Below the pieces are notes generated by a model, which was given only the letters and a program-made list of their open reading frames with translations, was not told where the DNA came from and did not search any database. Both the position numbers and the translations under genes were made by a program. Source: Nemertoderma westbladi (Eukaryota > Animalia > Xenacoelomorpha). Taken from it: DNA of 64,000 bases. Shown here one piece after another: positions 1,458 to 56,881 of the stretch; positions within the stretch are counted from its first letter, which is position 1, and each line of letters opens with the position of its first letter. The stretch is taken from assembly GCA_032718475.1 (NCBI GenBank), contig JAUCBJ010007751.1, positions 9,156 through 73,155 on the forward strand, in the 5' to 3' direction.

Positions 1458-1698
1458 TCAGATAGTTGTATTTGTAGAGAGTTCCCCTGTGTGCATTGCG
1501 TGTCTGTGTCTCATATGTCGCATGAAGCTGTCTTTTCTACCGAATGACGCATTACAATACAGACATACACAGACCTTGACTCTCGTGTGGGTGTTTAAAT
1601 GACGTCGCATATCATTGTTGGATTTGAACCGCCATTTGCACCGCGGCCAACTGCAAGCAAATCGTTTACGTTCAATCCAAACCGATTCCAATTCAAAA
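1458..1698 (-). CDS. Alternative terminal exon V6: two C2H2 zinc fingers
   Basis: FACSWPRCKWRFKSNNDMRRHLNTH and CLYCNASFGRKDSFMRHMRHRH. Acceptor tttattctttgaatatttgcag| at 1698 is phase 2, matching the donor at 35637. Confidence 0.8.
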
Positions 1699-1786
1699 CT
1701 GCAAATATTCAAAGAATAAATTTCACGTGAAAAACAACCACCAAAATTGCAACAACGTTAAATAGTAGAAAATCTTTAAATTTTAT

Positions 1787-2070
1787 GTGGGGCGTAGTAA
1801 GCGAGCTAGCCAAACGGAGCGTACAACTGTTCAGCAGTTGTCTATCGGTCAGTTGGTCTGTCTACCGGTCAGTCGGTCTGTCGGCCTGTAGTTCTGTCTG
1901 TCGGCAAAAGTTTGAAGGATAATAACTCAGTCCATCTTTCAAGAAAGAAAACCAATCTTGGCAGACATTTCTGTGTAGAGTCTGATATCGAATTTGCGTC
2001 GTGGGGCCACAGCAGTTCTCCAGTCTTCCGCTGGAGGGCTGGAGGCACCGATTGATATAGTGGTACCCAT
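1787..2070 (+). mobile_element. Helentron-associated (HINE/DINE-1-like) interspersed repeat copy
   Basis: GTGGGGCG start, GTCT/GTC microsatellite tract and AATAACTC...ACCAA(T/A)CTTGG core, shared with copies at ~9513, ~10935 and ~63485. Confidence 0.55.
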
Positions 2071-2071
2071 A

Positions 2072-3313
2072 GACAAGCTTGCTTACTTCATTCTGCCTAA
2101 AGGTCCCACCAACGTGTTTATGGTTTTGGTTGTTACCCGTATGACAAGCTTGCTTACTTCATTCTACCTAAAGGTCCCACGAACGTGTTTATGGTTTTGG
2201 TTGTTACCTGTATGACAAGCTTGCTTACTTCATTCTACCTAAAGGTCCCACGAACGTGTTTATGGTTTTGGTTGTTACCGGTATGACAAGCTTGCTTACT
2301 TCATTCTACCTAAAGGTCCCACGAACGTGTTTATGGTTTTGGTTGTTACCCGTATGACAAGGTTGCTTACTTCATTCTACCTAAAGGTCCCACGAACGTG
2401 TTTATGGTTTTGGTTGTTACCGGTATGACAAGGTTGCTTACTTCATTCTACCTAAAGGTCCCACGAACGTGTTTATGGTTTTGGTTGTTACCTGTATGAC
2501 AAGCTTGCTTACTTCATTCTACCTAAAGGTCCCACGAACGTGTTTATGGTTTTGGTTGTTATCGGTATGACAAGCTTGCTTACTTCATTCTACCTAAAGG
2601 TCCCACGAACGTGTTTATGGTTTTGGTTGTTACCGGTATGACAAGCTTGCTTACTTCATTCTACCTAAAGGTCCCACGAACGTGTTTATGGTTTTGGTTG
2701 TTACCCGTATTACAAGGTTGCTTACTTCATTCTACCTAAAGGTCCCACGAACGTGTTTATGGTTTTGGTTGTTACCGGTATGACAAGCTTGCTTACTTCA
2801 TTCTACCTAAAGGTCCCACGAACGTGTTTATGGTTTTGGTTGTTACCGGTATGACAAGCTTGCTTACTTCATTCTACCTAAAGGTCCCACGAACGTGTTT
2901 ATGGTTTTGGTTGTTACCGGTATGACAAGCTTGCTTACTTCATTCTACCTAAAGGTCCCACGAACGTGTTTATGGTTTTGGTTGTTACCGGTATGACAAG
3001 CTTGCTTACTTCATTCTACCTAAAGGTCCCACAAACGTGTTTATGGTTTTGGTTGTTACCCGTATGACAAGCTTGCTTACTTCATTCTACCTAAAGGTCC
3101 CACGAACGTGTTTATGGTTTTGGTTGTTACCGGTATGACAAGCTTGCTTACTTCATTCTACCTAAAGGTCCCACGAACGTGTTTATGGTTTTGGTTGTTA
3201 TCGGTATGACAAGCTTGCTTACTTCATTCTACCTAAAGGTCCCACGAACGTGTTTATGGTTTTGGTTGTTACCCGTATGACAAGCTCGCTTACTTCATTC
3301 TAACTAAAGGTCC
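2072..3313. repeat. 71-bp tandem repeat, ~17 copies
   Basis: Unit ATGACAAGCTTGCTTACTTCATTCTACCTAAAGGTCCCACGAACGTGTTTATGGTTTTGGTTGTTACCGGT; period 2141->2212. Confidence 0.97.
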
Positions 3314-3509
3314 CGGTAGTGGTTGATTTAGTTTATTAAGTTTCTTTATATGTTTCCCAGGAGTTTTTGCTATATCCGATACACAAAGTAGGGAACGTTG
3401 TTACATTGCTAATTTTCTCTTTAAAATGGAATCAACATTTTGCCAAAAATATCACTAAAATATATCTCTCTCATAAAATGTTTTGCTAGCGGTTGCCGGA
3501 CTGCCTTGG

Positions 3510-6500
3510 TACAAATGTATCGTTACTTAAGTACTGTTACAGATGTACAGTTACAGATGTACCATTACAGATGTACCGTTAATATTACAGAAGTACCGTT
3601 ACCATTACAGATGTACCGTTACCGTTGCAGATGTAGCGTTACAGATGTACAGTTACAGATATACCGTTACAGATGTACCATTACCGTTACAGATGTACCA
3701 TTACAGATGTACCGTTACAGATGTACCGTTATAGATGTACCGTTACAGATGTACCGTTACAGATGTACCATTACAGATGTACCGTTACAGATGTACCTTT
3801 ACAGATGTACCATTACAGATGTACCGTTACCGTTACAGATGTACCGACCGTTACAGATGTACCGTTACAGATGTACCGTTACAGATGTACCGTTACAGAT
3901 GTACCGTTACAGATGTACAGTTACAGATGTACCGTTACAGATGTACCATTACCGTTACAGATGTACCATTACAGATGTACCGTTACAGATGTACCGTTAT
4001 AGATGTACCGTTACAGATGTACCGTTACAGATGTACCATTACAGATGTACCGTTACAGATGTACCTTTACAGATGTACCATTACAGATGTACCGTTACCG
4101 TTACAGATGTACCGACCGTTACAGATGTACCGTTACAGATGTACCGTTACCGATGTACAGTTACAGATGTACCGCTACAGATGTACCGTTACCGATGTAC
4201 AGTTACAGATGTACCGTTACAGATGTACCGTTACAGATGTACCGTTACAGATGTATAGTTACAGATGTACAGTTACAGATGTACCATTGCCGTTACAGAT
4301 GTACCGTTACAGATGTACCATTACAGATGTACCGTTACAGATGTACTGTTACAGATGTACCGTTATAGATATACCGTTACAGATGTACCGTTACAGATGT
4401 ACAGTTACAGATGTACCATTACAGATGTACCGTTACCATTACAGATGTACCGTTACCATTACAGATGTACCGTTACCGTTACAGATGTACCGTTACAGAT
4501 GTACAGTTACAGATGTACCGTTACAGATGTACCGTTACCATTACAGATGTACCGTTACCATTACAGATGTACCGTTACCGTTACAGATGTACCGTTACAG
4601 ATGTACAGTTACATATGTACCATTACAGATGTACCATTACAGATGTACCGTTACAGATGTACCGTTACAGATGTACCGTTATAGATGTACCGTTACAGAT
4701 GTACCGTTACAGATGTACCGGTACAGATGTACCGTTACAGATGTACCGTTACAGATGTACCGTTACCGTTACAGATGTACCGTTACCGTTATAGATGTAC
4801 TGTTACCGTTACAGATGTACCGTTACCGTTACAGATGTACCGTTACAGATGTACAGTTACATATGTACCATTACAGATGTACCGTTACAGAAGTACCATT
4901 ACAGATGTACCGTTATAGATGTACCGTTACAGATGTACCGTTACAGATGTACCGTTACAGATGTACCGTTACAGATGTACCGTTACCATTACAGATGTAC
5001 CGTTTCCGTTACAGATGTACCGTTACCGTTACAGATGTACCGTTACCTTTACAGATGTACCTTTACAGATGTATCTTTACAGATGTACCATTACATATGT
5101 ACCGTTACAGATGTACCGTTACCGTTACAGATGTACCTTTACAGATGTACCTTTACAGATGTACCATTACATATGTACCGTTACAGATGTACCGTTACCG
5201 TTACAGATGTACCGTTACCGTTACAGATGTACCGTTACCGTTACAGATGTACCGTTGTCGTTACAGATGTACCGTTACCGTTACAGATGTACCGTTACCG
5301 TTACATATGTACCGTTACCTTTACAGATGTACCTTTACAGATGTACCTTTACAGATGTACCATTACATATGTACCGTTACAGATGTACCGTTACCATTAC
5401 AGATGTACCGTTTCCGTTACAGATGTACCGTTACCGTTACAGATATACCGTTACCCTTACAGATGTACCTTTACAGATGTACCTTTAGAGATGTACCATT
5501 ACATATGTACCGTTACAGATGTACCGTTACCGTTACAGATGTACCGTTACAGATGTACAGTTACATATGTACCATTACAGATGTACCATTACAGATGTAC
5601 CGTTACAGATGTACCGTTACAGATGTACCGTTATAGATGTACCGTTACAGATGTACCGTTACAGATGTACCGGTACAGATGTACCGTTACAGATGTACCG
5701 TTACAGATGTACCGTTACCGTTACAGATGTACCGTTACCGTTATAGATGTACTGTTACCGTTACAGATGTACCGTTACCGTTACAGATGTACCGTTACAG
5801 ATGTACAGTTACATATGTACCATTACAGATGTACCGTTACAGAAGTACCATTACAGATGTACCGTTATAGATGTACCGTTACAGATGTACCGTTACAGAT
5901 GTACCGTTACAGATGTACCGTTACAGATGTACCGTTACCATTACAGATGTACCGTTTCCGTTACAGATGTACCGTTACCGTTACAGATGTACCGTTACCT
6001 TTACAGATGTACCTTTACAGATGTATCTTTACAGATGTACCATTACATATGTACCGTTACAGATGTACCGTTACCGTTACAGATGTACCTTTACAGATGT
6101 ACCTTTACAGATGTACCATTACATATGTACCGTTACAGATGTACCGTTACCGTTACAGATGTACCGTTACCGTTACAGATGTACCGTTACCGTTACAGAT
6201 GTACCGTTGTCGTTACAGATGTACCGTTACCGTTACAGATGTACCGTTACCGTTACATATGTACCGTTACCTTTACAGATGTACCTTTACAGATGTACCT
6301 TTACAGATGTACCATTACATATGTACCGTTACAGATGTACCGTTACCATTACAGATGTACCGTTTCCGTTACAGATGTACCGTTACCGTTACAGATATAC
6401 CGTTACCCTTACAGATGTACCTTTACAGATGTACCTTTAGAGATGTACCATTACATATGTACCGTTACAGATGTACCGTTACCGTTACAGATGTACCTTT

Positions 6501-7715
6501 ACAGATGTACCTTTACAGATGTACCATTACATATGTACCGTTACAGATGTACCGTTACCGTTACAGATGTACCGTTACCGTTACAGATGTACCGTTGCCG
6601 TTACAGATGTACCGTTACCGTTACAGATGTACCGTTACCGTTACAGATGAACCGTTACCGTTACAGATGTACCGTTTCCGTTACAGATGTACCGTTACCG
6701 TTACAGATGTACCGTTACCTTTACAGATGTACCTTTACAGATGTACCTTTACAGATGTACCATTACATATGTACCGTTACAGATGTACCGTTACCGTTAC
6801 AGATGTACCTTTACAGATGTACCTTTACAGATGTACCATTACATATGTACCGTTACAGATGTACCGTTACCGTTACAGATGTACCGTTACCGTTACAGAT
6901 GTACCGTTGCCGTTACAGATGTACCGTTACCGTTACAGATGTACCGTTACCGTTACATATGTACCATTACAGATGTACCTTTACAGATGTTCCTTTACAG
7001 ATGTACCTTTACAGATGTACCATTACAGATGTACCTTTACAGATGTACCGTTACAGATGTACCTTTACAGATGTACCGTTACAGATGTACCGTTACCGTT
7101 ACAGATGTACCTTTACAGATATACCATTACAGGTGTACCATTACAGATCATTACCATTACTGATGTTCCGTTACAGATGTATCGTTACCATTACATATGT
7201 ACCATTGCAGATGTACCATTGCAGATGACCGTTACAGATGTACCATTACAGATGTATCATTATCGTTACAGATGTACTGTACAGTTACCGTTACAAATGT
7301 ACCATTCCAGATGTACCATTACCGTTACAGATGTACCGTTACTGTTACAGATGCATCGTTACAGATGTACAGTTACAGATGTACCGTTACCGTTACAGAT
7401 GTACCGTTACAGATGTACCCTTACAGATGTACCTTTATAGATGTACTGTTACAGATGTATCGTTACCCTTACAGATGTACTGTTACCATTACAGATGTAC
7501 CGTTACCGTTGCAGATGTACCATTACCGTTACAAATGTCCTGTTACCGTTACAGATGTACCGTTACAGGAGTACCGATACCGAGGTACCGTTACCGTTAC
7601 AAATGTACCGTTACCGTTACAGATGTACCGGTACCGTTACAGATGTACCGTTACCGTTACAGATGTACCGCTACCGTTACAAATGTACCGTTACAGGTGT
7701 ACAGTTTCAGATGTC
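3510..7715. repeat. 14-bp satellite (ACAGATGTACCGTT) with 20-bp variants and a 952-bp higher-order duplication
   Basis: Unit read directly. Identical ORF-track translations are offset by 952 bp (4685/5637, 4919/5871). Confidence 0.97.
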
Positions 7716-8540
7716 TTGTTATAATAATAATTAATAATATTTATATTATACGCGTTAGTTGAAGCATAAGTTTGTAGTTGTAATTGAATTATTTATACAA
7801 AATTGCAATATTTGGCAAAATAACTATGACAACGGAAAATAAAGAAAGTACATTATTTCATGCACAGTTTCATTGTAAAGTACTTTTCTAGAGATATAAA
7901 GAGTACAGTAAAGCTATAATGTGATACGCCTCGCAGTTTATAGTAACAGCGTTAAGTAATTCAGCTTATAATAATAATAATAAAAAATGTACAATACAGA
8001 CAGACGTTATTACATTGTTGTAAATAATGACGTCACCATCACACAATACGGTCTGGGGCAGAGATTAGTTATAGGGTTATTATTATTTATATAATATTAT
8101 CTGACATCGGGTTTAATGTAATACATAATTAATAAAACAAATTCATTGGGATAATGATCAAACATATAAATTATGTACAATACAGTACAATACACCAATT
8201 TAATTATATACTGTAAAATTGAGTTTGCTGCTTGTTTGTTATACAACAAAAACTGTACCTGAAAAAACTCTAAAAATCTCTACCTGGAATGATCATATGA
8301 TCATTGCAGGTGCTACGCATATGCCCTGTATAGCCCATAACAGACAGACCCGTGGATTATATACCCAATACTAATAACAGTATACAATCACAGTGAAAAA
8401 AATAATTACATTTTGGAATAGGAATAACTAATAATATTGATAAGGATGAAATGAGCCTGAAAAAGTTGAAGTTTGTGGGCGCAAACATTTATCCTAATGC
8501 GAATTTGTTGAGTAATAAATAAAACATCCGACATCCCTAA

Positions 8541-8850
8541 AGGCCCATTCACATCCAACGGACGGTACACCGCGCGGTGTACCGCAGGGCCAGCGGTACA
8601 CCGCTGACTGTGAACGACCCAACAGGTAGTTGTGCGCTAAACCGCGCGGTTTACCACAGCCCATTTAAACAATGTTAAAACAATTAATGTAATTTCCTGT
8701 TGAATTCCCAGTCGACAGATAGACAATCAGTTACCGCAACCAACGGTACCGTTGGGTGTGAACGGGCTCCGGGTAGTGTGCCGCTGGCTTACCGCTTCAA
8801 TACCGCTAGACTACTTTACCGCTCACGCACCGTTGGATGTGAACGGGGCT
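8541..8850. mobile_element. MITE, PIF/Harbinger-like
   Basis: TIRs AGGCCCATTCACATCCAACGG ... CCGTTGGATGTGAACGGGGCT, flanked by TAA and TTA. Confidence 0.7.
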
Positions 8851-8994
8851 TTAGACCAATGTTAATACACGCTGAAGGTTCGCAGTACACTCGGACTCGG
8901 CCAATACATCACATAATTCCATCTTGTGTTTGAGTATATAAATATAAGAATATTTAACGCCGTTACTACTATTAATTATTAGTATTAACAGAGG

Positions 8995-9262
8995 CTAGTT
9001 GTTATTCATCTTATGTATAAAGTTATTTTCCATGCGAGGGATATTCAGTGATTGGCCGGAATGTTTATCTGCTACATGTTCACGCCAACGGTACCTCCTA
9101 GAGAACTGTAAGTCGCAATGAGGACAGACGAATGGTTTATCTTTACTGTGAGTCACGAGATGACGGTTAAGGGCTCCTTGAAGCTTGAATCGCCATGGAC
9201 ACCAAGGACATCTGTGCGGTCTAAACGGGTCGCCATGGTAACCGGTGGCTCGTTGCCATTCG
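8995..9262 (-). CDS. Alternative terminal exon V5: two C2H2 zinc fingers
   Basis: HRCPWCPWRFKLQGALNRHLVTH-SKDKPF-VCPHCDLQFSRRYRWREHVADKH. Acceptor gtttgttatgttgcag| at 9262 is phase 2. Confidence 0.85.
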
Positions 9263-9757
9263 CTGCAACATAACAAACGCGTGTGTTGGTTGATATTCCC
9301 GGGAGTTACACATACAGCACATGCTCAGATGGAAAGAGTTTTTTAAGGTAAACATTAAAAGTTTGATTCACCCACATAAAAATGGATGCTAAACTAGGTT
9401 ATAAACAAATGTATTCAAATATTATTCATATATTAACATGTTATTGAGATAACTATGTACACAACCTATGTAAAGTGCTAATTTACACAAGTAAAAATAT
9501 TGCGAATAAGGTGTGGGGCGAGCCACGTAAGTCTAGGTGAGCCGTAGGGGTATAATTAGTGGACTCGTCTGTCGTTGTCGTCGTTTTCGTTGTCGGAAAT
9601 GTTTGAACGCTAATAACTCAGTCAATCTTTGATGAAATGGAACCAAACCTGGTACACATGTAGTCTATCAAAAGTTTAGAAATTCTACAGAGAAACAGAA
9701 TTCTGTAGTTCATCTGTCTGCCACAAAGGGGTGAATGACTAGTTCCACTAATTGTAC

Positions 9758-10861
9758 TATTGTTGCAACGGGATCCCGATGGAAAATCCCGATCCCGTCC
9801 CGATCCCGATGGAAACATATCGGGATTTGCTATTACTAAATTTATATGCCTTGCAGCTTAAAATTTGTAAAATTGTATAAAAATGTACAATTTTTGCCAA
9901 TAACAAAAACAATAATTTTTGTTAAATACAACAATTTTAGAGGATTTTCATTGGATGATTGATAAGATGATTGATAGGGATGTAAGTCAAGAAATGTAAG
10001 GAAATTATTTCCTAAATATTTTTCCCAAAATTTCCTATTTTATTAATTGATTATAAAAAGATTACTGTTAATAGTAAATATTTGCAGAAATATCCTCATC
10101 TTAGCATAAAATAGTAATAATACGACTGGAACTAAAAAAAAGATTGTGACTTTGTGTTTTGGAAATTTCATTACTGTATTAACTAGATGTTTTATATTGA
10201 ACGCAATTTCGGAAATTGAAACATTTTCAATTTTAAATCTTTCACAATTTTACCTCTGCTATTTTCTCGGTTTTATACACATTCTGAATCTGAAAACACA
10301 TAGGAAAAAACAAGTAGAGTAAGAAATGGAAACAAGTGATTCCTGCGTAGATGTGTTGAGGTGGTTCGTTGTCTTGGCTCTTAACTACGGGTGAAGTATA
10401 CTTTTCCGGAAATTTCCTTAAAAAAACATATTTCCGGAAAACTCACATCCCTAATGATTGATGAATGATTGATTGATTTACATGATTTATAACTGATTTC
10501 TGAATTTGAATTTATATCTGAAATTCATTCATTAAAATGTACATGAAAGTCTATATTATAAATAATTATTATTATATTATAATTATATTAAAAATGAAAT
10601 ACGTACGTGGGAAATAAACTACGCCAGTGGTGAACCATTTGAAAACAAAGTCAGTGGATATTTTTACATATCTTGGTATTTTTTAGTACATGACATTTCT
10701 CGAAAGATTGATTTACTCCTATAAAGAGGGCAGGGCAGATAGCCAGTTTAAGCTTTGAACGAGTCGCAATAAAATAAAAAATCCCGATCCCAAAAATCGG
10801 GACCCCGGCGGTTGCAATTCCGATCCCGAAAATTGTGGATCCCGATCCCGCTGCAACACTA
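9758..10861. mobile_element. Non-autonomous hAT-type element
   Basis: TIR TATTGTTGCAACGGGATC / GATCCCGCTGCAACACTA. 8-bp TSD AATTGTAC at 9750-9757 and 10862-10869. Confidence 0.85.
9975..10453. mobile_element. Second hAT-type MITE nested in the previous one
   Basis: TIR TAGGGATGTAAGT / ACTCACATCCCTA. 8-bp TSD ATGATTGA at 9967-9974 and 10454-10461. Confidence 0.85.
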
Positions 10862-10934
10862 AATTGTACCTCTACGCAAAGGCTCATATGGACTTACGCG
10901 CTGCGCGAAGTCCCCACGTACGTGTATATAGATA

Positions 10935-11240
10935 GGGGAGCGAAGCGAAGCCTTAGTAAATGGGAACCATTGACGAGTTGTCTGTCGTCGTCGACGTCTA
11001 ATTTTTAATCGCTAATAACTCGTTCATTCCTTGATAAAATTAAACCAAACTTGGTACGTATGTAGTCCGTCAAAAGTTTAGAAAGAATCTGAAGTTTGGT
11101 CCAAAAATCAGACAATCTGTCAGTCGGTAGCGGTAGTTTCAGGCTTTTTATAAAAAGTCGGACAATCATTGATGAAATTATAAATTAAACCAAACTTGGT
11201 AGATTTTCAATCTCGTGCTGCGCGAAGGCCCCACGAAAGT
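10935..11240 (+). mobile_element. HINE-like repeat copy
   Basis: GTC tract, GCTAATAACTCG, ACCAAACTTGGT, ending GCGCGAAGGCCCCACGAA. Confidence 0.5.
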
Positions 11241-11367
11241 ATCCTAATTACAAACGCCACTGATCACGTACAGTAAAACTGCTGTGATAAATAATCATCA
11301 TATGTGCGCACAATAAATTTCCAGTTATTTAGCATTAGAAAGTGAAAGTAAATGTACTAGTAAACGA

Positions 11368-12109
11368 TCATAATCTTCGCAATATCTCAGGACAGTGGCG
11401 ATTAACATTATCGTAGAGAGTTCGAAGAGGAATACCAAAATGGACTGAAGCCTCGCGTATAGTCATTGTTCTAGAGGACAGATTCTCTAGCGCCATCTGG
11501 AGGTCATTCTGTGAATATGATTTCACTCGATACTCCCTCAGAACGCCTCTGGAGGTATCCCGTGTGGTAGTCTCGGGTGCATTAACGGAGGAGACACCGT
11601 CTATAGAGACAGACGCAGCGCTCAAAACCGGCGGTAATGTTGCCTCTTCCTTAACTTGGTTTAATGGCATCCACGACTCCCCCCTTGAGTACAATCCTCC
11701 CTCAGTTCCTCCCTGTTCTGCCCCTACTGCGCCCCTCCCCCGTCCATCCACTGCTCCCACCCCTCCGCCCTCCACTGCCCCCAGCCCCCTTCCACCCACT
11801 CCACCCTCTATACTCCCCACTACACCAACCCCTCGCTCTTCCATTAAACCCACCCCTTCACCCACAGCGTCCGCTTCTTTCCGACGACCGAGCGTCGCGC
11901 CCACCCCGACCACACACCGTTTCTTCCTACGAGCGTCGGGTAACGGTAGACCGTGTTTCTGCACGTGGAAGTACAGCGTTCTGGATGGGATCTTATATCT
12001 GGCCGCGGCCGAAGGAACTGATAGTAACCCGGACTCAAGGGATCTCAACGCCATTACTAAATCCTCAAAGGTATACCGGTTCTTCCGACGCCGAAGTCGT
12101 ATCTTCAGC
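11368..12109 (-). CDS. Alternative terminal exon V4: two Pipsqueak-type HTH domains separated by a Gly-rich linker
   Basis: RYTFEDLVMALRSLESGLLSVPSAAARYKIPSRTLYFHV and SYSQNDLQMALENLSSRTMTIREASVHFGIPLRTLYDNV. Acceptor cctgttttgtctgtgcag| at 12109 is phase 2. Confidence 0.85.
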
Positions 12110-16009: not shown

Positions 16010-17308
16010 ATGATTAAGTATCATTACTACTTCATTGGGGTTGTCTTTATCAGTACCATTATTTTATGTGTTTATGTGTATTTCGTTCAAACGGTCTTCA
16101 CAAAGTTTACCATTCAGCAGGTAGGAAGGTACAATCAGCTGTTACAGTCAGATGGAAACAACTGCCCAAACAATGTCGAGGTTTTCGAACTTTTGGATTC
16201 TGATGAATTTCTCCTTAAACAAATCGATAGTGATTACAGTTGTCTGAAGGAAGCTACATACTTCCCGCACAGTCTGTCTATAGGAAAATGCGTGTGTCGG
16301 CCTGGTTGGAACGGACACCAGTGCAACATACCAGACATCATACTCAGCTCTACACTGCCAACCACAATCAAGCCTATTTTACGCAAAGTTCCCCGTCGTA
16401 TTATCAATGCGTTCCCTATAAACATTGAATTCGAATTACTACAAGCGAGATTTCACGAACTTTCAGGATTAGTGGACGTCTATGTTATTCTAGAATCGAA
16501 CAATACAATGAATGGATCGGCTAAACTGTTGTTTCTACGTGACAAACTCAGAGAAGGTGTTTTCGGAAAAGAAGCCAAGAAGATATTATACGTTTGTTTG
16601 GATTATTTCCCCAAAGGTGCGGACAAAAATGGTTGGATTTCTGTTGACTTGCACCGAAATTACATCGGGGAGGCAGGATTGGCTGAACGACTACGCGGAT
16701 GGCGTCATGATGATTGGTTTATTCTAAACGACGCGGACGAGATTCCGCGTCGTGAATTAGTTATGTTTCTTCGTAGTCATGACAATATTCCCTTTCCCGT
16801 CAGCATCCGCTACCAGACGACAAGCTTTGGATTCTTTTGGGGTAACAAACGGGCTTCAGAACTACAAACTGCCGCTCCTATGGCCTATATGCGCGACATT
16901 ATAAACTATAGATGTAATGAATTGAGGGGTTTAAATAAACAAAGTTTGAAAACTGCGGCATTAACGTCCTTCAAGAAGTCATTCCCTGAACTACCTGTAT
17001 CGGCGTGGACCGCAGGAACTGGTCGCAGCTACGGCGGATGGCATTGCTCCTGGTGTTATAGAATAGAGGGAATACTATGGAAACTAGTGTCTGCACCTAA
17101 CTGTGACTACCCCCGATGGGGAGATTACCCGGAGAAGCAGGACTTGGGATATATTCGCGGTTTGGTCGCTAAGGGCATGTGGTTCACTGGGGATCAGCAG
17201 GCCTATGTGGCCAGGGATCATACGGCTACCGATTATGCACCCAAATACATTATGGAGCACAAAATAGAGTTATCCTACTTACTTTACAATCCATATACTA
17301 ACACATAA
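16010..17308 (+). CDS. Intronless glycosyltransferase family 17 protein (MGAT3/GnT-III-like beta-1,4-GlcNAc transferase), type II membrane protein
   Basis: ATG at 16010. N-terminal TM segment YYFIGVVFISTIILCVYVYFV, EGF-like CVCRPGWNGHQC, PRRIINAFPINIEFELL..RF.EL...VD..VILESN, DDWFILNDADEIP and GWHCSWC. Confidence 0.88.
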   Translation: MIKYHYYFIGVVFISTIILCVYVYFVQTVFTKFTIQQVGRYNQLLQSDGNNCPNNVEVFELLDSDEFLLKQIDSDYSCLKEATYFPHSLSIGKCVCRPGWNGHQCNIPDIILSSTLPTTIKPILRKVPRRIINAFPINIEFELLQARFHELSGLVDVYVILESNNTMNGSAKLLFLRDKLREGVFGKEAKKILYVCLDYFPKGADKNGWISVDLHRNYIGEAGLAERLRGWRHDDWFILNDADEIPRRELVMFLRSHDNIPFPVSIRYQTTSFGFFWGNKRASELQTAAPMAYMRDIINYRCNELRGLNKQSLKTAALTSFKKSFPELPVSAWTAGTGRSYGGWHCSWCYRIEGILWKLVSAPNCDYPRWGDYPEKQDLGYIRGLVAKGMWFTGDQQAYVARDHTATDYAPKYIMEHKIELSYLLYNPYTNT

Positions 17309-22280: not shown

Positions 22281-22560
22281 CAAATTATTTGTATTTAATT
22301 TAAAATTAATTATTTGTATTTAATTTTAAATTAATTATTTGTATTTAATTTTAAATTAATTATTTGTATTTAATTTTAAATTAATTATTTGTATTTAATT
22401 TTAAATTAATTATTTGTATTTAATTTTAAATTAATTATTTGTATTTAATTTTAAATTAATTATTTGTATTTAATTTTAAATTAATTATTTGTATTTAATT
22501 TTAAATTAATTATTTGTATTTAATTTTAAATTAATTATTTGTATTTAATTTTAAATTAAA
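22281..22560. repeat. 25-bp AT-rich tandem repeat (TTAATTATTTGTATTTAATTTTAAA), ~11 copies
   Basis: Unit read directly. Confidence 0.95.
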
Positions 22561-23549: not shown

Positions 23550-23856
23550 TCAATCATTCGATACAGACTTCAATCCGCAATAATGAACACTATTCTTCGG
23601 GCGCGCGGCCTCTATTGTTATAGAGTGCCGATATCTCAGATGGGCAGTAAGGTTGGAGGTGTGGCGACCATAGGCTATGTATTTATTGCACATCAGACAG
23701 ACAACACGTTCGCTTTGGTCTGGCGACGTGAGCGTAAAATAATTCCATACCGAACTGACGGCCCTCGGTGGTACTAAATGTGGGGTTGATGATTGGTTCC
23801 CGGTAAACATCGCATCCGCATTGTCATGGTTACTACGAATCGGCGTCACAAGGCAT
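23550..23856 (-). CDS. Alternative terminal exon V1: BED zinc finger
   Basis: SSVWNYFTL...VVCLMCNKYIAYGRHTSNLTAHLRYRH. Acceptor cccaattcctccctgtag| at 23856 is phase 2. Confidence 0.85.
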
Positions 23857-27615: not shown

Positions 27616-28143
27616 GGGGGGGGGGGGGGGTACCCCCTCAGGAGATTTGTTTTTAACAGCTCTAACTTCGTGTTGCAGGTCAATATCACTGATGTGGTGT
27701 TCAGCCAACATGGGGAAGGCCAAAGAGCAACAAAAATTGAAATTTTAAATTTTTTTGTGTCCCTCTAGTCTAGTCTACTAGTCGCTTAATATTTATACAA
27801 ATTTTTGAAACCAACATTTTTTGGACTCAGCACCTTCGAATCTACAAAAATTATCCAGACGATTTTATAAATTATTAATTTTTAAATTAATTAATTAAAA
27901 TTAATAAAATCAATTAAATTTCAAAAAAAATTGAAAGAAAAGTTTCCAAAAAGTGCTGGAAAATTTTTCAAGATGTCCAGAAAACCTTTCAAACGAGTCA
28001 TAAATTATCGAATTTGGGTGTAAAACGGCGGAGGAGTAGTATTTTGAAAAATTGAAATATCGTGAAATGTAATTCCGAGATAATTTGCTTTCAAGTTTGA
28101 ACCTTCCCGCTCAAACCTGACTGTCTGTAGTCTGTTAATCGGT

Positions 28144-29535
28144 CAGTTCCCAAGAAGGGCAACCTAACACTCTATGGTTCTTTTCGGGGAATCTCATTGA
28201 TCTCGATTGCTGCAAAGCTATACAATAGAATTCTATTAAATCGCATCAGGGATCCCATTGAGAGACTGCTCCTTGGAAATCAGAATGGGTTCCGTAAAGG
28301 TCGTGGGACAATGGAGCCCATTTTGGCACTTATAAGGATAATTGAAGAGTTATCAAAAAAGAAAGACATACTGGCTGTTATCTTTGTTGACTTCTTCAAG
28401 GCCTTTGATTCAGTTTCTCGCTCACGTATGTTAAGCATACTTTCATTATATGGGATTCCTGATGAAATTATTGCAGCAATCAGATCAGTATACGATGGTT
28501 CGACAACATTTGTGTCTACTGTTGACGGTGACACAGAACCATTTGAAGTGTTATGGGGCGTCCTCCAGGGAGACACACTTGCACCATTCTTGTTCATAAT
28601 TGTGGTTGACTATGTTCTACGCATGTCCTTAGATCATTATAATGATGATGGGGTGTTGATAACTACACCTACTGGCTCCAGAAGTCGAGGAAATCCTGCC
28701 AAGTACCTCACTGATCTAGACTTTGCTGATGACTTAGGAGTACTCTCAGAATCACTAGAGGGAGCCCAACGGCTCCTCAGCTCATTAGAACATGCTGCTT
28801 CTAGTGTTGGTCTTTTTATTAACTCCAGAAAGACCAAAATTTTGACAGTTAACTTTGAAAGTCCTCAGCAAGTCTCTGATCGGATGAGCATAAGCTCAAA
28901 AGATGGTATGCTTGAGCATGTGGATGACTTCTGTTACCTGGGATCATGGATCCGGAAGTCAGGTGAGGACCTTCGAATACGTAAGGGAAAGGCATGGGCA
29001 GCCTTGAATAGGCTCTCCAAGATTTGGAAGTCAACGAGAATTAATCGGAAACTTAAGGTCCGATTATTTAGAGCAGCAGTAGTTCCAGTACTCCTCTATG
29101 GGAGTCCATGCTGGGCTCTAACTGCTGAGGACACCAAATCTCTGGATGGCACATTCACAAGAATGCTACGCCGGGTTCATTGTGTCAAGTACAATGCACA
29201 CATCTCCAACCAGACACTATATAACATTGGAGGTGTCTCATTGGTTCCCCCAAGCTTGACACTAGAACAAAATCGCCTCCGCTTTGCAGGACATTGCTTT
29301 CGCCGTGAGGACCAGCCAGTGCATAATCGTGTACTTTGGCAGCCTCATGGAGTGAATAAGCATGGTGGACAGCCCATGACTTTCTTGAGACGCATCTTAA
29401 AGGTAGATGGCATCTTGTAGATGCGGATGATCTAGCAAATGTCATGGGTGATACAGAGTTGTGGCGGTGCAATTTTGTCGATAAGCCGGCACAGCATTCT
29501 TAAAAATGCAGCTGCAATGCAGCATGCCGATCCTG
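28144..29535 (+). mobile_element. 5'-truncated RTE-clade LINE (RT)
   Basis: QNGFRKGR, FVDFFKAFDSV, GVLQGDTLAPFLF, DFADDL, YLGS; near-identical to 48757-50273. Confidence 0.92.
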
Positions 29536-29539
29536 GTAG

Positions 29540-29990
29540 AGAACCGTTATGTGTAGCTGGACTGCGGCGGAAGTAATGGATTATTACAAAATAAATTCTA
29601 CTCCAGTTTATGGCTGTTTGTTAGACGTAGTCGAATGGAAGAAGCTATTCATAGAGCGAATTAGAAAAGGTTTTCGTGGTGCATTTTTAGGTGACTTTTG
29701 TATATTGCGAGCAATCCTGTTGTGTTCATTGAGGTCACGGTTCCTTTTTCTGTAAGAACCGGAGTTAGACAAGGGTCGGTTTGTTCACCGTTACTTTGTT
29801 TTGTATTGTGCTAGGCGTTTTAATTATTAGATAGCTGATAGCTGATAGCTAGGTAGCTGGTGTAGGATGTTCGCGATAGGGCCTCTATTTTATAGTTGCC
29901 TTGCCTACGCCGATGATGTGATCTTACTAACTATGCCCTAGTATCGTGGGACTTCAGTATATGATAAAGATTTGCAAGACATTCTGTATG
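29540..29990 (+). mobile_element. Decayed LINE RT fragment
   Basis: GVRQGSVCSPLL and CLAYADDVILL motifs in broken frames. Confidence 0.6.
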
Positions 29991-30011
29991 AGTGTATAGA
30001 TTTTAAATACC

Positions 30012-33000
30012 GGTACTATAGGACAAGGGAACGAGGTACTATAGGACAAGGGAACGAGGTACTATAGGACAAGGGAACGAGGTACTATAGGATAAGGGAA
30101 CGAGGTACTATATGACAAGGGAACGAGGTACTATAGAACAAGGGAACGACGTACTATAGGACAAGGGAACGACGTACTATAGGACAAGGGAACGACGTAC
30201 TATAGGACAACGGAACGAGGTAATATAGGACAAGGGAACGAGGTACTATAAGACAAGGGAACGAGGTACTATAGGACAAGGGAACGAGGTATTATAGGAC
30301 AAGGGAACGAGGTACTATAGGATAAGGGAACGAGGTACTATATGACAAGGGAACGAGGTACTATAGAACAAGGGAACGACGTACTATAGGACAAGGGAAA
30401 GACGTACTATAGGACAACGGAACGAGGTACTATAGGACAAGGGAACGAGGTACTATAGGACAAGGGAACGAGGTACTATAGGATAAGGGAACGAGGTACT
30501 ATAGGACAAGGGAACGACGTACTATAGGACAACGGAACGAGGTACTATAGGACAAGGGAACGAGGTACTATAGGACAACGGAACGAGGTACTATAGGACA
30601 AGGGAACGAGGTACTATAGGACAAGGGAACGAGGTACTATAGGACAAGGGAACGAGGTACTATAGGACAAGGGAACGAGGTACTATAGGACAAGGGAACG
30701 AGGTACTATAGGACAAGGGAACGAGGTACTATAGGACAACGGAACGAGGTACTATAGGACAAGGGAACGAGGTACTATAGGACAAGGGAACGACGTACTA
30801 TAGGACAAGGGAAAGAGGTACTATGGGACAAGGGAACGAGGTACTATAGGACAAGGGAACGAGGTACTATAGGACAAGGGAACGACGTACTATAGGACAA
30901 GGGAACGAGGTACTATAGGACAAGGGAACGAGGTACTATAGGACAAGGGGACGACGTACTATAGGACAACGGAACGAGGTACTATAGGACAAGGGAACGA
31001 GGTACTATAGGACAACGGAACGAGGTACTATAGGACAAGGGAACGACGTACTATAGGACAAGGGAACGAGGTACTATAGGACAAGGGAACGAGGTACTAT
31101 AGGACAAGGGAACGAGGTACTATAGGACAAGGGAACGACGTACTATAGGACAAGGGAACGACGTACTATAGGACAAGGGAACGAGGTACTATAGGACAAG
31201 GGAACGAGGTACTATAGGACAACGGAACGAGGTACTATAGGACAAGGGAACGAGGTACTATAGGACAAGGGAACGAGGTACTATAGGACAAGGGAACGAG
31301 GTACTATAGGACAAGGGAACGAGGTACTATAGGACAAGGGAACGAGGTACTATAGGACAAGGGAACGAGGTACTATAGGACAAGGGAACGAGGTACTATA
31401 GGACAACGGAACGAGGTACTATAGGACAAGGGAACGAGGTACTATAGGACAAGGGAACGAGGTACTATGGGACAAGGGAACGAGGTACTATAGGACAAGG
31501 GAACGAGGTACTATAGGACAACGGAACGAGGTACTATAGGACAAGGGAACGAGGTACTATAGGACAAGGGAACGAGGTACTATAGGACAACGGAACGAGG
31601 TACTATAGGACAAGGGAACGAGGTACTATAGGACAAGGGAACGAGGTACTATAGGACAAGGGAACGAGGTACTATAGGACAAGGGAACGAGGTACTATAG
31701 GACAAGGGAACGAGGTACTATAGGACAAGGGAACGAGGTACTATAGGACAAGGGAACGAGGTACTATAGGACAAGGGAACGAGGTACTATAGGACAAGGG
31801 AACGAGGTACTATAGGACAAGGGAACGAGGTACTATAGGACAAGGGAACGAGGTACTATAGGACAAGGGAACGAGGTACTATAGGACAAGGGAACGAGGT
31901 ACTATAGGACAAGGGAACGAGGTACTATAGGACAAGGGAACGAGGTACTATAGGACAAGGGAACGAGGTACTATAGGACAAGGGAACGAGGTACTATAGG
32001 ACAAGGGAACGAGGTACTATAGGACAAGGGAACGAGGTACTATAGGACAAGGGAACGACGTACTATAGGACAAGGGAACGAGGTACTATAGGACAAGGGA
32101 ACGAGGTAGTATAGGACACGGGAACGAGGTACTATAGGACAAGGGAACGAGGTAGTATAGGACACGGGAACGAGGTACTATAGGACAACGGAACGAGGTA
32201 GTATAGGACACGGGAACGAGGTACTATAGGACAAGGGAACGAGGTACTATAGGACAAGGGAACGAGGTACTATAGGACAAGGGAACGAGGTACTATAGGA
32301 CAAGGGAACGAGGTACTATAGGACAAGGGAACGAGGTACTATAGGACAAGGGAACGAGGTACTATAGGACAAGGGAACGAGGTAGTATAGGACACGGGAA
32401 CGAGGTACTATAGGACAAGGGAACGAGGTACTATAGGACAAGGGAACGAGGTACTATAGGACAACGGAACGAGGTACTATAGGACAAGGGAACGACGTAC
32501 TATAGGACAAGGGAACGAGGTACTATAGGACAAGGGAACGAGGTACTATAGGACAAGGGAACGAGGTACTATAGGACAAGGGAACGAGGTACTATAGGAC
32601 AAGGGAACGAGGTACTATAGGACAAGGGAACGAGGTACTATAGGACAAGGGAACGAGGTACTATAGGACAAGGGAACGAGGTACTATAGGACAAGGGAAC
32701 GAGGTACTATAGGACAAGGGAACGAGGTACTATAGGACAAGGGAACGAGGTACTATATGACAAGGGAACGAGGTACTATAGGACAAGGGAACGACGTACT
32801 ATAGGACAAGGGAACGACGTACTATAGGACAAGGGAACGACGTACTATAGGACAACGGAACGAGGTACTATAGGACAAGGGAACGAGGTACTATAGGACA
32901 AGGGAACGAGGTATTATAGGACAAGGCAACGAGGTACTATAGGGCAAGGGAACGACGTACTATAGGACAACGGAACGACGTACTATAGGACAAGGGAACG

Positions 33001-35266
33001 ACGTACTATAGGACAAGGGAACGACGTACTATAGGACAACGGAACGAGGTACTATAGGACAAGGGAACGACGTACTATAGGACAAGGGAACGACGTACTA
33101 TAGGACAAGGGAACGAGGTACTATAGGACAAGGGAACGAGGTACTATAGGACAAGGGAACGAGGTACTATAGGACAAGGGAACGAGGTACTATAGGACAA
33201 GGGAACGAGGTACTATAGGATAAGGGAACGAGGTACTATATGACAAGGGAACGAGGTACTATAGAACAAGGGAACGACGTACTATAGGACAAGGGAACGA
33301 CGTACTATAGGACAAGGGAACGACGTACTATAGGACAAGGGAACGACGTACTATAGGACAACGGAACGAGGTACTATAGGACAAGGGAACGAGGTACTAT
33401 AGGACAAGGGAACGAGGTATTATAGGACAAGGCAACGAGGTACTATAGGACAAGGGAACGAGGTACTATAGGACAAGGGAACGAGGTACTATAGGACAAG
33501 GGAACGAGGTACTATAGGACAAGGGAACGAGGTACTATAGGACAAGGGAACGAGGTACTATAGGACAAGGGAACGAGGTACTATAGGACAAGGGAACGAG
33601 GTACTATAGGACAACGGAACGAGGTACTATAGGACAAGGGAACGAGGTACTATAGGGCAAGGGAACGAGGTACTATAGGACAAGGGAACGAGGTACTATA
33701 GGACAAGGGAACGAGGTACTATAGGACAAGGGAACGAGGTACTATAGGACAAGGGAACGAGGTACTATAGGACAAGGGAACGAGGTACTATAGGACAAGG
33801 GAACGAGGTATTATAGGACAAGGGAACGAGGTACTATAGGATAAGGGAACGAGGTACTATATGACAAGGGAACGAGGTACTATAGAACAAGGGAACGACG
33901 TACTATAGGACAAGGGAACGACGTACTATAGGACAACGGAACGAGGTACTACAGGACAAGGGAACGAGGTACTATAGGACAAGGGAACGAGGTACTATAG
34001 GATAAGGGAACGAGGTACTATAGGACAAGGGAACGACGTACTATAGGACAACGGAACGAGGTACTATAGGACAAGGGAACGAGGTACTATAGGACAACGG
34101 AACGAGGTACTATAGGACAAGGGAACGAGGTACTATGGGACAAGGGAACGAGGTACTATAGGACAAGGGAAAGAGGTACTATAGGACAACGGAACGAGGT
34201 ACTATAGGACAAGGGAACGAGGTACTATAGGACAAGGGAACGAGGTACTATATGACAAGGGAACGAGGTACTATAGGACAAGGGAACGACGTACTATAGG
34301 ACAAGGGAACGACGTACTATAGGACAAGGGAACGACGTACTATAGGACAAGGGAACGAGGTACTATAGGACAACGGAACGAGGTACTATAGGACAAGGGA
34401 ACGAGGTACTATAGGACAACGGAACGAGGTACTATAGGACAACGGAACGAGGTACTATAGGACAAGGGAACGAGGTACTATAGGACAAGGGAACGAGGTA
34501 CTATAGGACACGGGAACGAGGTACTATAGGACAAGGGAACGAGGTACTATAGGACAAGGGAACGAGGTACTATAGGACAAGGGAACGACGTACTATAGGA
34601 CAAGGGAACGACGTACTATAGGACAAGGGGACGAGGTACTATAGGACACGGGAACGAGGTACTATAGGACAAGGGAACGAGGTACTATAGGACAAGGGAA
34701 CGACGTACTATAGGACAAGGGGACGAGGTACTATAGGACAAGGGAACGAGGTACTATAGGACAAGGGAACGACGTACTATAGGACAAGGGGACGAGGTAC
34801 TATAGGACACGGGAACGAGGTACTATAGGACAACGGAACGAGGTACTATAGGACAAGGGAACGAGGTACTATAGGACAAGGGAACGAGGTACTATAGGAC
34901 AAGGGAACGAGGTACTATAGGATAAGGGAACGAGGTACTATATGACAAGGGAACGAGGTACTATATGACACGGGAACGAGGTAGTATAGGACACGGGAAC
35001 GAGGTACTATAGGACAAGGGAACGAGGTACTATAGGACAAGGGAACGAGGTACTATAGGACAACGGAACGAGGTAGTATAGGACACGGGAACGAGGTACT
35101 ATAGGACAAGGGAACGAGGTACTATAGGACAAGGGAACGAGGTACTATAGGACAAGGGAACGAGGTACTATAGGATAAGGGAACGAGGTACTATATGACA
35201 AGGGAACGAGGTACTATAGAACAAGGGAACGACGTACTATAGGACAAGGGAACGAGGTACTATAGG
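30012..35266. repeat. 23-bp satellite (GGTACTATAGGACAAGGGAACGA), ~228 copies
   Basis: Period 30012->30035; homogeneous with recurring variants. Confidence 0.98.
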
Positions 35267-35636
35267 TATTTAACATATCTGAAATATGGAAATTATGAGA
35301 ATTGGTTTAAATTTTCTTTTTCATATCCTTAGGTATTTGTACTGTGCAATTTTTTTTGTTCATGTACGAAAATAATAATAATAAAGGTGCGCAGCAAAGA
35401 GGGGGAATAATGCAAGGGAAAATAAAAATTATCAGACACCCAAAGCGAATCCGCGTAAAAGGCAGCTCGGCACCAGGTAGTGGCGTTAAACCGTATCCAT
35501 ATACGGAATGGGGATAGCTCGATGAAACTCAGTGAGACTTTATATAACGTGCTAAACCTAAACATGGAGTGAGTCGGTACGCTAGTACTAGTAGTAAACT
35601 AGTAGTGAATGCCGCTACAATGAATATATAACTTAC

Positions 35637-35727
35637 CCGCCAATGTTGCTCCCGTCCAATGTATTTGTCTCCCTAGACGTCCCTTGTAAGACAGACTGGT
35701 CCAGGTTGGACTCATCCAAAGTGAAAT
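35637..35727 (-). CDS. Constant exon 3 of the multi-isoform DNA-binding protein gene
   Basis: Acceptor cgattttatcag| (phase 1), open frame DFTLDESNLDQSVLQGTSRETNTLDGSNIG, perfect donor GG|GTAAGT (phase 2). Confidence 0.8.
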
Positions 35728-36218
35728 CTGATAAAATCGATAAGAAAATAGTCAATAAGAGTAAATACAACGCGATACGGAACAAGTGAATTTCAATATT
35801 TGGTTCCGGTAGATATTCTCTGTTGAGATTCTGTCACATTCGGGATCCCCATATTGTTCTACAAATCTTTAACAATATTGTTTCATAGTGCTAAGTTATA
35901 GTTTTAGAGGATAAAGGTTAAGGGATAGGAGCAGGCTACAGTGGCACACGGCACGTTAGTCTAACCAAAACAATAAACGATAGCCAAAAGAACAGGTTAT
36001 ATTTAAATTCTTGACAAGACGACCCCTGATGGCCTGGCCCCTTTAGGACCAACGTGATAGAATATTTGGAATCCTCGGAACGCAAGCTTTCTAATGATAA
36101 TTAAATAACGACGAGTCAAGAATGGCGGCGAATAATCAGATCGCGAAGTCAACAGCAAATCTTTAAATACCGACACTATTCCGTTACTCTAGAACTACCT
36201 TAGTATATCACCGCTAAC

Positions 36219-36553
36219 CTTGAATGCCACTACTGTTCGGTAAATCTTGGTTTATTCCACTCAGACGAACTGCGGAATCGTTATAGACTGGATCCATCGT
36301 AGAGGAATCCAGGTCCTCACTCGGCGACATAAACTGTTCGACTCCCGTCTCTCCGCCAACGCAATCCATCGGGGATTCCGATTTAATCATGAGAACCTCG
36401 CCGGGTTGGGTTCCGAGTAGATTCCCTTCCAGTGGATTCGGATCACCTTTAGTCGGGTCGGGGGTCAGCTCCTCTTGGGTAGACACCATGGAGACGGACT
36501 GCTGGCGTCTCAGCTGTAAACTCGGCGTCTTTCGACCACGGTGTATACGGAAT
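36219..36553 (-). CDS. Constant exon 2 (acidic, low-complexity linker with IKSE motif)
   Basis: Acceptor ctattatcttctag| (phase 2), open frame FRIHRGRKTP...VLMIKSESP...SSGIQ, donor G|GTTAGC (phase 1). Confidence 0.8.
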
Positions 36554-37313
36554 CTAGAAGATAATAGAGTATAAAACCGATTTCGGACAATATTAGGCCT
36601 ATACAGGGTGTCTCTCGTAATTTTGGAATAACTCTGGTAAATAAACCAAAACTAATTGATTGTATGTTAATCGGAAGATGATCTCAATTTAAAGCTAAAT
36701 AATTCCAGAGATGCATATTGTTTTTGGCAGCCTTTCTCCAGGATATACTACCGGCACCTCATACATTACTTGGAATTATTTTAACTCTGTGGTGCCTTAT
36801 AGCATAGAGGAGTGCACATGCACACTTTTAACATACCGGTACTGTATAAAGCAATAATTACCTGATTACACGAACTATAACTAACCTACCAGACCAGTAT
36901 CCTATGAAGTTTAATGTTCATTTTAAGGTCTACCTATGTCATTATACTCAAATTCAATTAAATTCAACCAAATTATGTATGGAAATCATTAGAGTTCATT
37001 GGAGTCTAGGGAACTATAGAACAAGACCATACCGATAGAACCTGCTAATTAAAATATTGAAAATAACTAGGTATTAGTATAGGTAAAGGTACCGCACATT
37101 GTTAGGAATTATAATAAATGTTTCAGTTATCCGCGTAGCGGAAATCGTTTACCCGGCTTTGAGCTTTACCACGTCCCGCACTGCAGCATACCAATATGAT
37201 ATTATAAACAGTAACACAAACCTTAGTCAAGTTTTACTAACACCAAACATTAGGGCCTGGTGCCTGGCCTACTATATACTATAGACATAAACCACAAAAG
37301 TGAAATAGCTAAC

Positions 37314-37861
37314 CTCGATCTATTATGCATAGAGTATATATTTCGCGTGTTGGTTTGTCGACCAGCGGCACCGAATCTAAGATTAGGGGAGTTTCCCCCG
37401 GTAAGTGAAGGGCTCCTTAAGCGGGGATGGGAAAAGGCCAGATTGTCCGGGATTCCGGGATGTGAAGAATGGACTGGTGGGGGATCCAATGGAAACTCCT
37501 GGTCTTGGGACGTAAACGAAGTCGACATACCGGGATCGTCATTAAGGAAAGAATATGATTGGTCGTAATGTTCTTGCGATATTTGTTCATTGTGAATGAC
37601 CTCTCCGGATACATTAGTATCGGAATTACTCGCAATGTTCTCTGAGTCACTAGTCAACAATTTCTGTAGCCAGGATGTGATACGCCCGGCATTGCAACTG
37701 GATGTCACGTATTCATCGAGGAAGGCCGGGTCGTTATTAAGGTAATCCCTTAAAAAGCTACGCATAAACAAACCATTCTCTAGACAGAGGTTGATGAAAG
37801 ATGTCTTTGGGATCAAAAACGATGACTCAAAATCAAGAGTATCTGCATGCCCTTGTATCAT
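37314..37861 (-). CDS. Constant exon 1 (putative start; unknown N-terminal domain)
   Basis: ATG at 37861, 182-codon open frame, donor AG|GTTAGC (phase 2) in frame with exon 2. Confidence 0.7.
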
Positions 37862-56876: not shown

Positions 56877-56881
56877 TTATA

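Follow-up and report, generated by a model that had tools for sequence, protein, structure and literature searches.

A putative array of six DNA-binding terminal exons of lola-like design behind a probable orphan front domain in Nemertoderma westbladi

Contig JAUCBJ010007751.1 of Nemertoderma westbladi carries a set of constant coding exons and six terminal exons, all on the minus strand and spread over positions 1458..37861 of the 64,000-nt stretch analysed (the window, to which all positions refer), which raises the question whether they form a single gene that joins one N-terminal region to six interchangeable DNA-binding ends. From the sequence this appears likely: the last constant exon would be spliced to one of the six ends, and we infer the production of six transcription factor isoforms. 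The layout is the design known from fly lola, but probably built on a front domain without known relatives. The features on which this reading rests are as follows.

38062..38116, minus strand: putative non-coding first exon of 55 nt, starting at TCAGTC, which we take to be an initiator-like motif, with donor CCG/GTAGGT followed by a 73-nt intron
37314..37988, minus strand: constant exon 1, with acceptor 37988, ATG 37861 and donor GAG/GTTAGC (phase 2)
37634..37834, minus strand: orphan head, residues ~10-76, with four predicted helices; not a BTB domain
36219..36553, minus strand: constant exon 2, 335 nt, a low-complexity acidic/Pro/Ser/Gly linker
35637..35727, minus strand: constant exon 3, 91 nt, ending at the common phase-2 donor CGG/GTAAGT
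23550..23856, minus strand: terminal exon 1, BED zinc finger (Pfam); predicted isoform of 426 aa
22869..23088, minus strand: terminal exon 2, BED zinc finger (Pfam); predicted isoform of 397 aa
20881..21178, minus strand: terminal exon 3, BED zinc finger (Pfam); predicted isoform of 423 aa
11368..12109, minus strand: terminal exon 4, two Pipsqueak helix-turn-helix domains with a Gly-rich spacer between them (Pfam); predicted isoform of 571 aa
8995..9262, minus strand: terminal exon 5, two C2H2 fingers, behind the weakest of the six acceptors; predicted isoform of 413 aa
1458..1698, minus strand: terminal exon 6, two C2H2 fingers (Pfam); predicted isoform of 404 aa

The constant coding sequence (37861-37314, 36553-36219 and 35727-35637, minus strand) comprises segments of 548, 335 and 91 nt (phases 2, 1 and 2, cumulatively), which join in frame into an open stretch of 324 residues plus GG and end at the phase-2 donor at 35637, common to the whole array. 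This agrees with the initial annotation, which had proposed just such a splicing of three minus-strand exons. The exon 2 linker is likely disordered and likely carries a SUMO site, with one IKSE at residue 239 that presumably represents a SUMO-type motif.

The six terminal acceptors (23856, 23088, 21178, 12109, 9262, and 1698) are all YAG sites with a pyrimidine tract, and in each case the frame is open only if read as phase 2. Pfam identifies zf-BED in three of the exons (E 8.5e-12, 2.1e-8, and 7.5e-7), two HTH_psq domains in the 12109 exon (E 2.4e-11), and two zf-C2H2 fingers in each of the remaining two (E 3.1e-9 and 5.6e-8), every module being intact and then followed by a stop. In 6/6 exons, no AG from which the frame stays open as far as the domain scores higher than the named acceptor; the score of the one at 9262 is equalled by an AG at 9393 that is out of frame and closed. 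Pfam and the frame checks thus bear out the earlier description of six phase-2 acceptors, each leading to a DNA-binding module and a stop, and the sequence supports a layout of one constant donor, six in-phase terminal exons and three folds; the description of all six reading frames as short does not fit the 12109 exon, which encodes 246 aa with two Psq domains.

The acceptor score is our own, and the cut-off of 14 for a strong acceptor was chosen after the six scores (14.4-18.0) were known. As a control, 29 of 104 other minus-strand ORFs of at least 60 aa carry a strong acceptor within their first 35 codons, 11 of the 29 in phase 2 (11/104 overall), and a six-of-six match would arise by chance with a frequency of ~0.38^6 = 0.003, phase alone being considered. 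The initial annotation had put the chance at about (1/3)^6 for independent acceptors. Scanned without preselection, 110 strong acceptors yielded phase-2 frames of at least 60 aa at the six exons, at four LINE-ORF sites and at one other, the last being a featureless ORF at 35557. The terminal exons have a GC content of 0.44-0.54, higher than both flanks in five of the six. The array may continue left of the window, as the initial annotation supposed, but within the window no seventh DNA-binding exon was detected: the search covered 124 of the 182 other minus-strand ORFs, and none of the 111 plus-strand ORFs scanned below 38,100, a set free of repeats and of overlaps with MGAT3 or the LINE, encodes a DNA-binding domain. 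The MGAT3 gene itself is nested in the array on the plus strand, and its best matches are mostly to fish, at ~42%.

It seems quite improbable that the gene includes only some of the six exons, the rest being final exons of adjacent or degenerate genes or being reached via small linker exons. The distal exons do lie 23-34 kb from the donor, and the exon search covered frames of at least 35 codons, with smaller linker exons falling below this limit; on the other hand, all six match the phase of the donor, which would be needless for separate genes, and the window holds no other 5' coding exon and no paralog of exon 1. Less probable still is that these BED and Pipsqueak exons have no function and are remnants of hAT and pogo transposons that lie in an intron by chance. 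Transposases of the hAT and pogo types do carry such domains N-terminally, and the region is rich in mobile DNA, including a DDE_1 element at 56784-58183, but no transposase core follows any module, the stop comes soon after the domain, each exon has a strong in-phase acceptor, three of the four BED/Psq exons have no start codon before the domain, and the frames are intact despite deep divergence. The neighbouring ORFs contain no transposase family and no other coding domain beside the terminal exons, and intact hAT or pogo transposases enclosing the exons, a case raised in the initial annotation, were not seen. Five of the six domains lack a preceding Met and no transposase core follows any of the exons, so that the terminal exons need an upstream exon. 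A transposon origin of the modules followed by capture is nonetheless plausible. Identity to BED exon 1 is 43% for BED exon 2 and 33% for BED exon 3, and the two C2H2 exons are 38% identical to each other; this deep divergence (33-43% identity) suggests that the array is old, and the persistence of six intact frames amid broken transposons implies selection.

The BTB domain is the defining feature of lola and mod(mdg4), and the initial annotation overlooked its absence from the constant region. Pfam identifies no BTB or other family in constant exons 1-3, none of the 172/172 minus-strand ORFs of at least 35 aa from 37,900 to 64,000 encodes a BTB domain, and a six-frame motif scan found none in the upstream part of the window (26 kb). 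The likening of the locus to lola and mod(mdg4) is thus sound as to design but appears not to extend to membership, no BTB having been found in the constant region or upstream in the window. An ordinary Tramtrack-group BTB gene of the lola/broad type might still underlie the array, with BTB exons located over 26 kb upstream, past an intron full of transposons, that enter exon 1 at alternative acceptors and leave the "constant region" as linker alone. We regard this as unlikely. Two such acceptors exist, at 37804 (phase 0, score 14.1) and 37779 (phase 1, score 16.1), and might draw coding exons from beyond its borders into the gene, which counts against the preferred reading. The upstream 26 kb is mainly mobile DNA, and the linkers of lola/broad-like genes are often without homologs. 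Ends with a short run of one or two fingers, or with a helix-turn-helix, are also typical of TTK-type BTB factors (PMC11426971). Against this, the 37988 acceptor scores higher than both alternatives and is the strongest (18.4); it is followed by 127 nt with no ATG and stops in all three frames and then by the ATG at 37861 in good context, and is preceded by a putative small upstream exon with an initiator-like site. In addition, the first 75 residues of exon 1 are hydrophobic and predicted to be helical, unlike a linker. A weaker point is that TTK-BTB proteins are described as arthropod-specific (PMC11426971), and the nested MGAT3 gene has no named arthropod protein in the best 120 of 203 matches. 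The 5' end near 38116 appears self-contained in the sequence.

In the preferred reading, a single gene with a self-contained 5' end, the N-terminal head of exon 1 would take the position of the BTB domain. Exon 1 has 0 matches among 1.84 billion proteins of all lengths and no homolog among proteins of lengths 100-321, in metagenome contigs or in the PDB; exon 2 has no homolog in a search of longer proteins only, and six proteins of the window have no exact match in a look-up. Helices are predicted at 19-29, 34-42, 45-54, and 58-76 by two single-sequence models of low confidence (pLDDT 59 and 64). Feature matches from a protein language model (Atlas) place SAM_NCD1, SAM_1/2, and SAM_TNK near the head (0.80-0.84), with 8/10 and 9/10 of the head matches falling in one clan. 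Pfam gives no SAM match for the head at E 10, and a narrow profile of 74 bacterial SAM sequences (from 77 loci, three being dropped as short or with stops; one confirmed SAM) scores 1.9 bits out of register, a value reached by 16 of 500 shuffles, with a z of -0.02 when aligned end to end. Fold searches with the two head models return no match at E 0.001 or better and no Z of at least 5, the best Z values (4.5 and 4.9) being to unrelated helical proteins, and no SAM entry appears among the 50 matches listed for either model; a SAM search of one plasmid likewise found nothing. The SAM-like character of the head is thus a lead only, unconfirmed by Pfam, fold searches or the SAM profile. It is conceivable, if somewhat doubtful, that the locus represents a lola-like system of independent origin, with a highly diverged, self-assembling SAM-type head standing in for BTB and with BED, Pipsqueak and C2H2 modules, some captured from transposases, swapped behind it; isoforms would then co-assemble via the head into mixed complexes that read combined DNA sites. 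A literature search, limited as to subscription papers, found no SAM or non-BTB version, nor an annelid or crustacean one.

A transcript starting near 38116 would use the sole donor at 35637 and one acceptor 11.8-33.9 kb downstream, with only one module per protein because every terminal exon ends in a stop. Trans-splicing is known for Drosophila mod(mdg4) and lola, and 3' transcripts without a 5' splice site are reported to favour it (PMC4387717). It is possible, albeit on the unlikely side, that the same parts are joined here partly or wholly in this manner, with the constant exons forming their own transcript and the ends arising from separate promoters, a reading compatible with that of a single gene. 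Donor and acceptors are separated by LINEs, a minisatellite of 5.25 kb and a gene on the other strand, the 800 nt ahead of each of the six acceptors contain no strong donor, and cis transcripts, if long, must cross the plus-strand gene inside the array. Conversely, the six exons are all on the strand of the donor and in order, with none in the 111 plus-strand ORFs. Scans revealed no TSA-like pseudo-donor with a U1-pairing score of at least 8.5/11 between 35636 and 20311, no pairing between donor and acceptor introns above shuffles, and no 8-mer common to four or more upstream regions, negatives that are weak because the mod(mdg4) trans-splicing motifs are described as redundant (PMC13490949). 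Nor was Dscam-type docking/selector pairing detected: in 6/6 cases the match between the opening 377 nt of the last common intron and the 300 nt upstream of the acceptor stayed within the range of 12 shuffles. Judged by strand, order and the U1-site scan, nothing found appears to point to trans-splicing.

Exon choice would most likely be made in cis, with acceptors competing and coupled to the transcript end point. Only 461 nt separate the end of terminal exon 1 from the exon 2 acceptor, and no AATAAA lies within 1.5 kb of terminal exons 1, 5, and 6. This poly(A) arrangement counts against the single-gene reading. By analogy, the head would act as BTB does in lola, as a shared protein-interaction module, and the isoforms would direct one set of partners to distinct DNA sites.

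It is common to regard lola and mod(mdg4) as special cases within a BTB family that is specific to arthropods. If an unrelated head carried this layout, the principle of one interaction head with many DNA readers would have arisen more than once. The mixture of BED, Psq and C2H2 ends would make a phase-2 acceptor the sole entry requirement, and the array would then act as an entry point for new DNA-binding modules, perhaps of transposon origin. The locus also offers a small six-way system for testing exon choice and isoform-specific binding.

Among known systems, lola combines constant 5' exons with alternative 3' exons to give 20 isoforms, 17 of them with different C2H2 ends (PMC11426971), a layout shared by the present array, and its short two-finger ends resemble exons 5 and 6 here. 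However, the head of lola is a TTK-type BTB domain and part of its splicing occurs in trans, whereas the locus here has an orphan head with no detectable BTB, BED fingers in half of its ends and a double Psq in another. In mod(mdg4), common exons are likewise joined to one of at least 30 variable 3' exons with DNA-binding-type domains (PMC4387717; PMC13490949), but behind a BTB head, with mostly FLYWCH ends, from both strands and exclusively by trans-splicing, while the array here has no FLYWCH, no BTB and one strand only. The pipsqueak-type BTB-Psq factors carry Psq domains behind a BTB head (PMC11426971), and BEAF-32 has two isoforms and a BED finger (PMC4208683). In these systems, as far as the same sources extend, the folds belong to separate genes, whereas here BED, Psq and C2H2 stand as alternatives in one array.

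The gene under study lies on the minus strand, and its shared part is made of three constant exons, which as initially annotated splice in frame (phases 2, 1 and 2) up to a phase-2 donor at 35637; joined, they read open through 324 residues and leave two bases over.

Constant exons (donors with a slash at the exon end)
37861-37314, minus: constant exon 1, 548 nt, phase 2, donor GAG/GTTAGC
36553-36219, minus: constant exon 2, 335 nt, phase 1, donor AAG/GTTAGC
35727-35637, minus: constant exon 3, 91 nt, phase 2, donor CGG/GTAAGT

Within intron 1, the top match to the donor consensus in the gene region (10/11) stands at 36862 on the minus strand, immediately 3' of an AG, and is a candidate for a recursive splice site or a pseudo-site.

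Joining the shared donor to each of the six acceptors yields open frames that all end in a stop, and Pfam identifies a DNA-binding module in every terminal exon, bearing out the proposed mixture of BED, Pipsqueak and C2H2 domains in one array of phase-2 exons.

Terminal exons (minus strand, by acceptor)
23856: exon 1, BED finger, 426-residue isoform frame
23088: exon 2, BED finger, 397-residue isoform frame
21178: exon 3, BED finger, 423-residue isoform frame
12109: exon 4, two Pipsqueak domains, 571-residue isoform frame
9262: exon 5, two C2H2 fingers, 413-residue isoform frame
1698: exon 6, two C2H2 fingers, 404-residue isoform frame

These exons do not appear to be self-sufficient, as five of the six have no methionine upstream of the domain. 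No transposase core comes after any of them, which speaks against the possibility, raised at the outset, that they lie within intact transposases. BED exon 1 has 43% identity with BED exon 2 and 33% with BED exon 3, the two C2H2 exons are 38% identical to each other, and the DNA of the terminal exons shares no match longer than ~30 bases; by this divergence the exons are old. Inside the Pipsqueak exon, a strong phase-1 acceptor at 11600 (minus) is in frame with the second Pipsqueak domain but cannot be joined straight to the phase-2 donor in frame.

The array is set among a nested gene, tandem repeats and mobile DNA.

Other features of the window
1-670: tandem array, 35 bp
2072-3314: tandem array, 71 bp
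3510-7714: tandem array, 14/20 bp
16010-17308, plus: MGAT3-like glycosyltransferase family 17 gene, intronless, 432 residues
17905-19117, minus: older LINE
22283-22559: tandem array, 25 bp
28131-29539, plus: LINE reverse transcriptase copy (RVT_1, DUF6451)
30012-35266: 23-bp minisatellite, 228 copies, 96% matches, beginning ~370 nt past the shared donor
42128-42489: LINE reverse transcriptase copy (RVT_1, DUF6451)
46503-48762, minus: LTR-retrotransposon gag/protease remains (DUF1759, zinc knuckle, aspartyl protease)
48735-50258, plus: LINE reverse transcriptase copy (RVT_1, DUF6451)
56784-58183, plus: DDE_1 transposase fragment, then a PHD finger
43481-44535, 50253-51559, 52733-53572, 60810-61874 (Cys/His-rich, resembling zinc-knuckle gag) and 62751-63458, all minus: long open frames with no significant Pfam match

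The MGAT3-like gene sits inside the array, on the opposite strand and between BED exon 3 and the Pipsqueak exon; its best matches are mostly fish proteins (~42% identity), with no named arthropod protein in the top 120 of 203. Together with the introns, LINEs and LTR-element remains, this gene marks the host as an animal. Depletion of CpG is slight (o/e 0.92). The three LINE copies are 96-98% identical, indicating recent activity, and the one at 48735 is inserted at the front of the LTR-retrotransposon remains. About 1.2 kb of the left part of the DDE_1 element recurs at 41471-43006 with 99.5% identity, in a copy split by a LINE piece. The five frames lacking a Pfam match, of 170-355 residues each, are probably pieces of unclassified mobile elements. 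The intact frames of the terminal exons amid broken retroelements suggest selection on them.

By a simple acceptor score of our own, whose cut-off was chosen after the scores of the six exons were known, the named AG scores highest among the frame-preserving acceptors at all six. Among 104 control minus-strand ORFs of at least 60 residues (a set without the nine ORFs of the gene and two large repeats), a strong acceptor lies near the start in 29 and is phase 2 in 11 of these, so that the six-of-six match would arise by chance with a probability of ~0.003 on phase alone, under a post hoc cut-off, in keeping with the original view of it as unlikely by chance. In the reverse direction, a scan that took its start from every strong acceptor (110 in positions 700 to 35600) recovered phase-2 frames of at least 60 residues at all six exons and otherwise only at four sites in a LINE ORF and at 35557 (75 residues, no Pfam match). 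A search for more DNA-binding exons returned none, either in 124 of the 182 minus-strand ORFs below 37,900 (those left out being mostly the exons themselves or ORFs that overlap LINEs, the MGAT3 gene or exons already known) or, on the plus strand, in 111 ORFs below 38,100.

We infer every donor-acceptor junction from sequence, and the locus is most simply read as choosing among alternative last exons in cis: the one donor would pair with one of six acceptors, at distances of 11.8 to 33.9 kb, and each protein would receive a single DNA-binding module. Poly(A) signals are not clear at three of the six terminal exons. Trans-splicing of the constant part to the terminal exons, for which signals are described in PMC4387717 and PMC13490949, is unsupported: pairing between donor-intron and acceptor-intron RNA did not exceed shuffles, the regions upstream of the acceptors yielded no common motif, and the last common intron no strong U1-pairing site. 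Redundancy of the mod(mdg4) signals (PMC13490949) makes these negatives weak, and trans-splicing stays a less likely but plausible mechanism.

The N-terminal part that the isoforms would share is, in the exons identified, not a BTB domain. Constant exons 1-3 match no Pfam family, searches found no relative for exon 1 among 1.84 billion representatives or for exon 2 in the longer proteins, and a six-frame scan with BTB motifs returned no coherent match. The 5' end appears self-contained.

Features at the 5' end
38118, minus: initiator-like word
38062, minus: upstream donor, then a 73-nt intron
37988, minus: strongest local acceptor, opening the constant exon 1 region

The 127 nt between this acceptor and the ATG at 37861 contain no earlier ATG and are closed by stops in every frame. 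No BTB match was found in any of the 172 upstream minus-strand ORFs of at least 35 residues. Coding exons from outside the window could nevertheless enter through acceptors at 37779 and 37804, and a BTB-coding exon far beyond it, joined to exon 1, is therefore retained as an unlikely but not negligible alternative; the closed appearance of the 5' end counts against it.

The head, residues 1-75, is richer in hydrophobic residues than the remainder of the constant part, and AlphaFold predicted four helices for it in both of two single-sequence runs (pLDDT 59 and 64). An ESM Atlas feature search placed it with SAM-family clusters at 0.80-0.84, scores also attained by one third of shuffled proteins, with 8/10 and 9/10 of the best family-bearing matches in one clan. 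Since a SAM domain was not confirmed by Pfam at E 10, by Foldseek or wide structural searches (two of each), or by a profile built from 74 bacterial SAM domains (z about 0), a SAM-like head is a lead only.

The locus is real and well-formed at the DNA level. Of the known systems, lola has 20 isoforms, 17 with differing C2H2 ends, mod(mdg4) has at least 30 with mostly FLYWCH ends, and both carry an arthropod-specific TTK-type BTB head (PMC11426971); BEAF-32 comes in two isoforms and carries a BED finger (PMC4208683). Supplementary file 7 of PMC11426971, which gives domain architectures, may include BTB loci mixing BED, Pipsqueak and C2H2 ends, and no relevant account of a SAM-headed or non-arthropod counterpart was found in the literature searched. 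The likeness to lola and mod(mdg4) claimed in the initial annotation stands for the layout, which works as in lola with one donor and alternative DNA-binding last exons, but fails for the head, as Pfam finds no BTB in the exons identified whereas lola has one. The locus is a novel version of an already known design.
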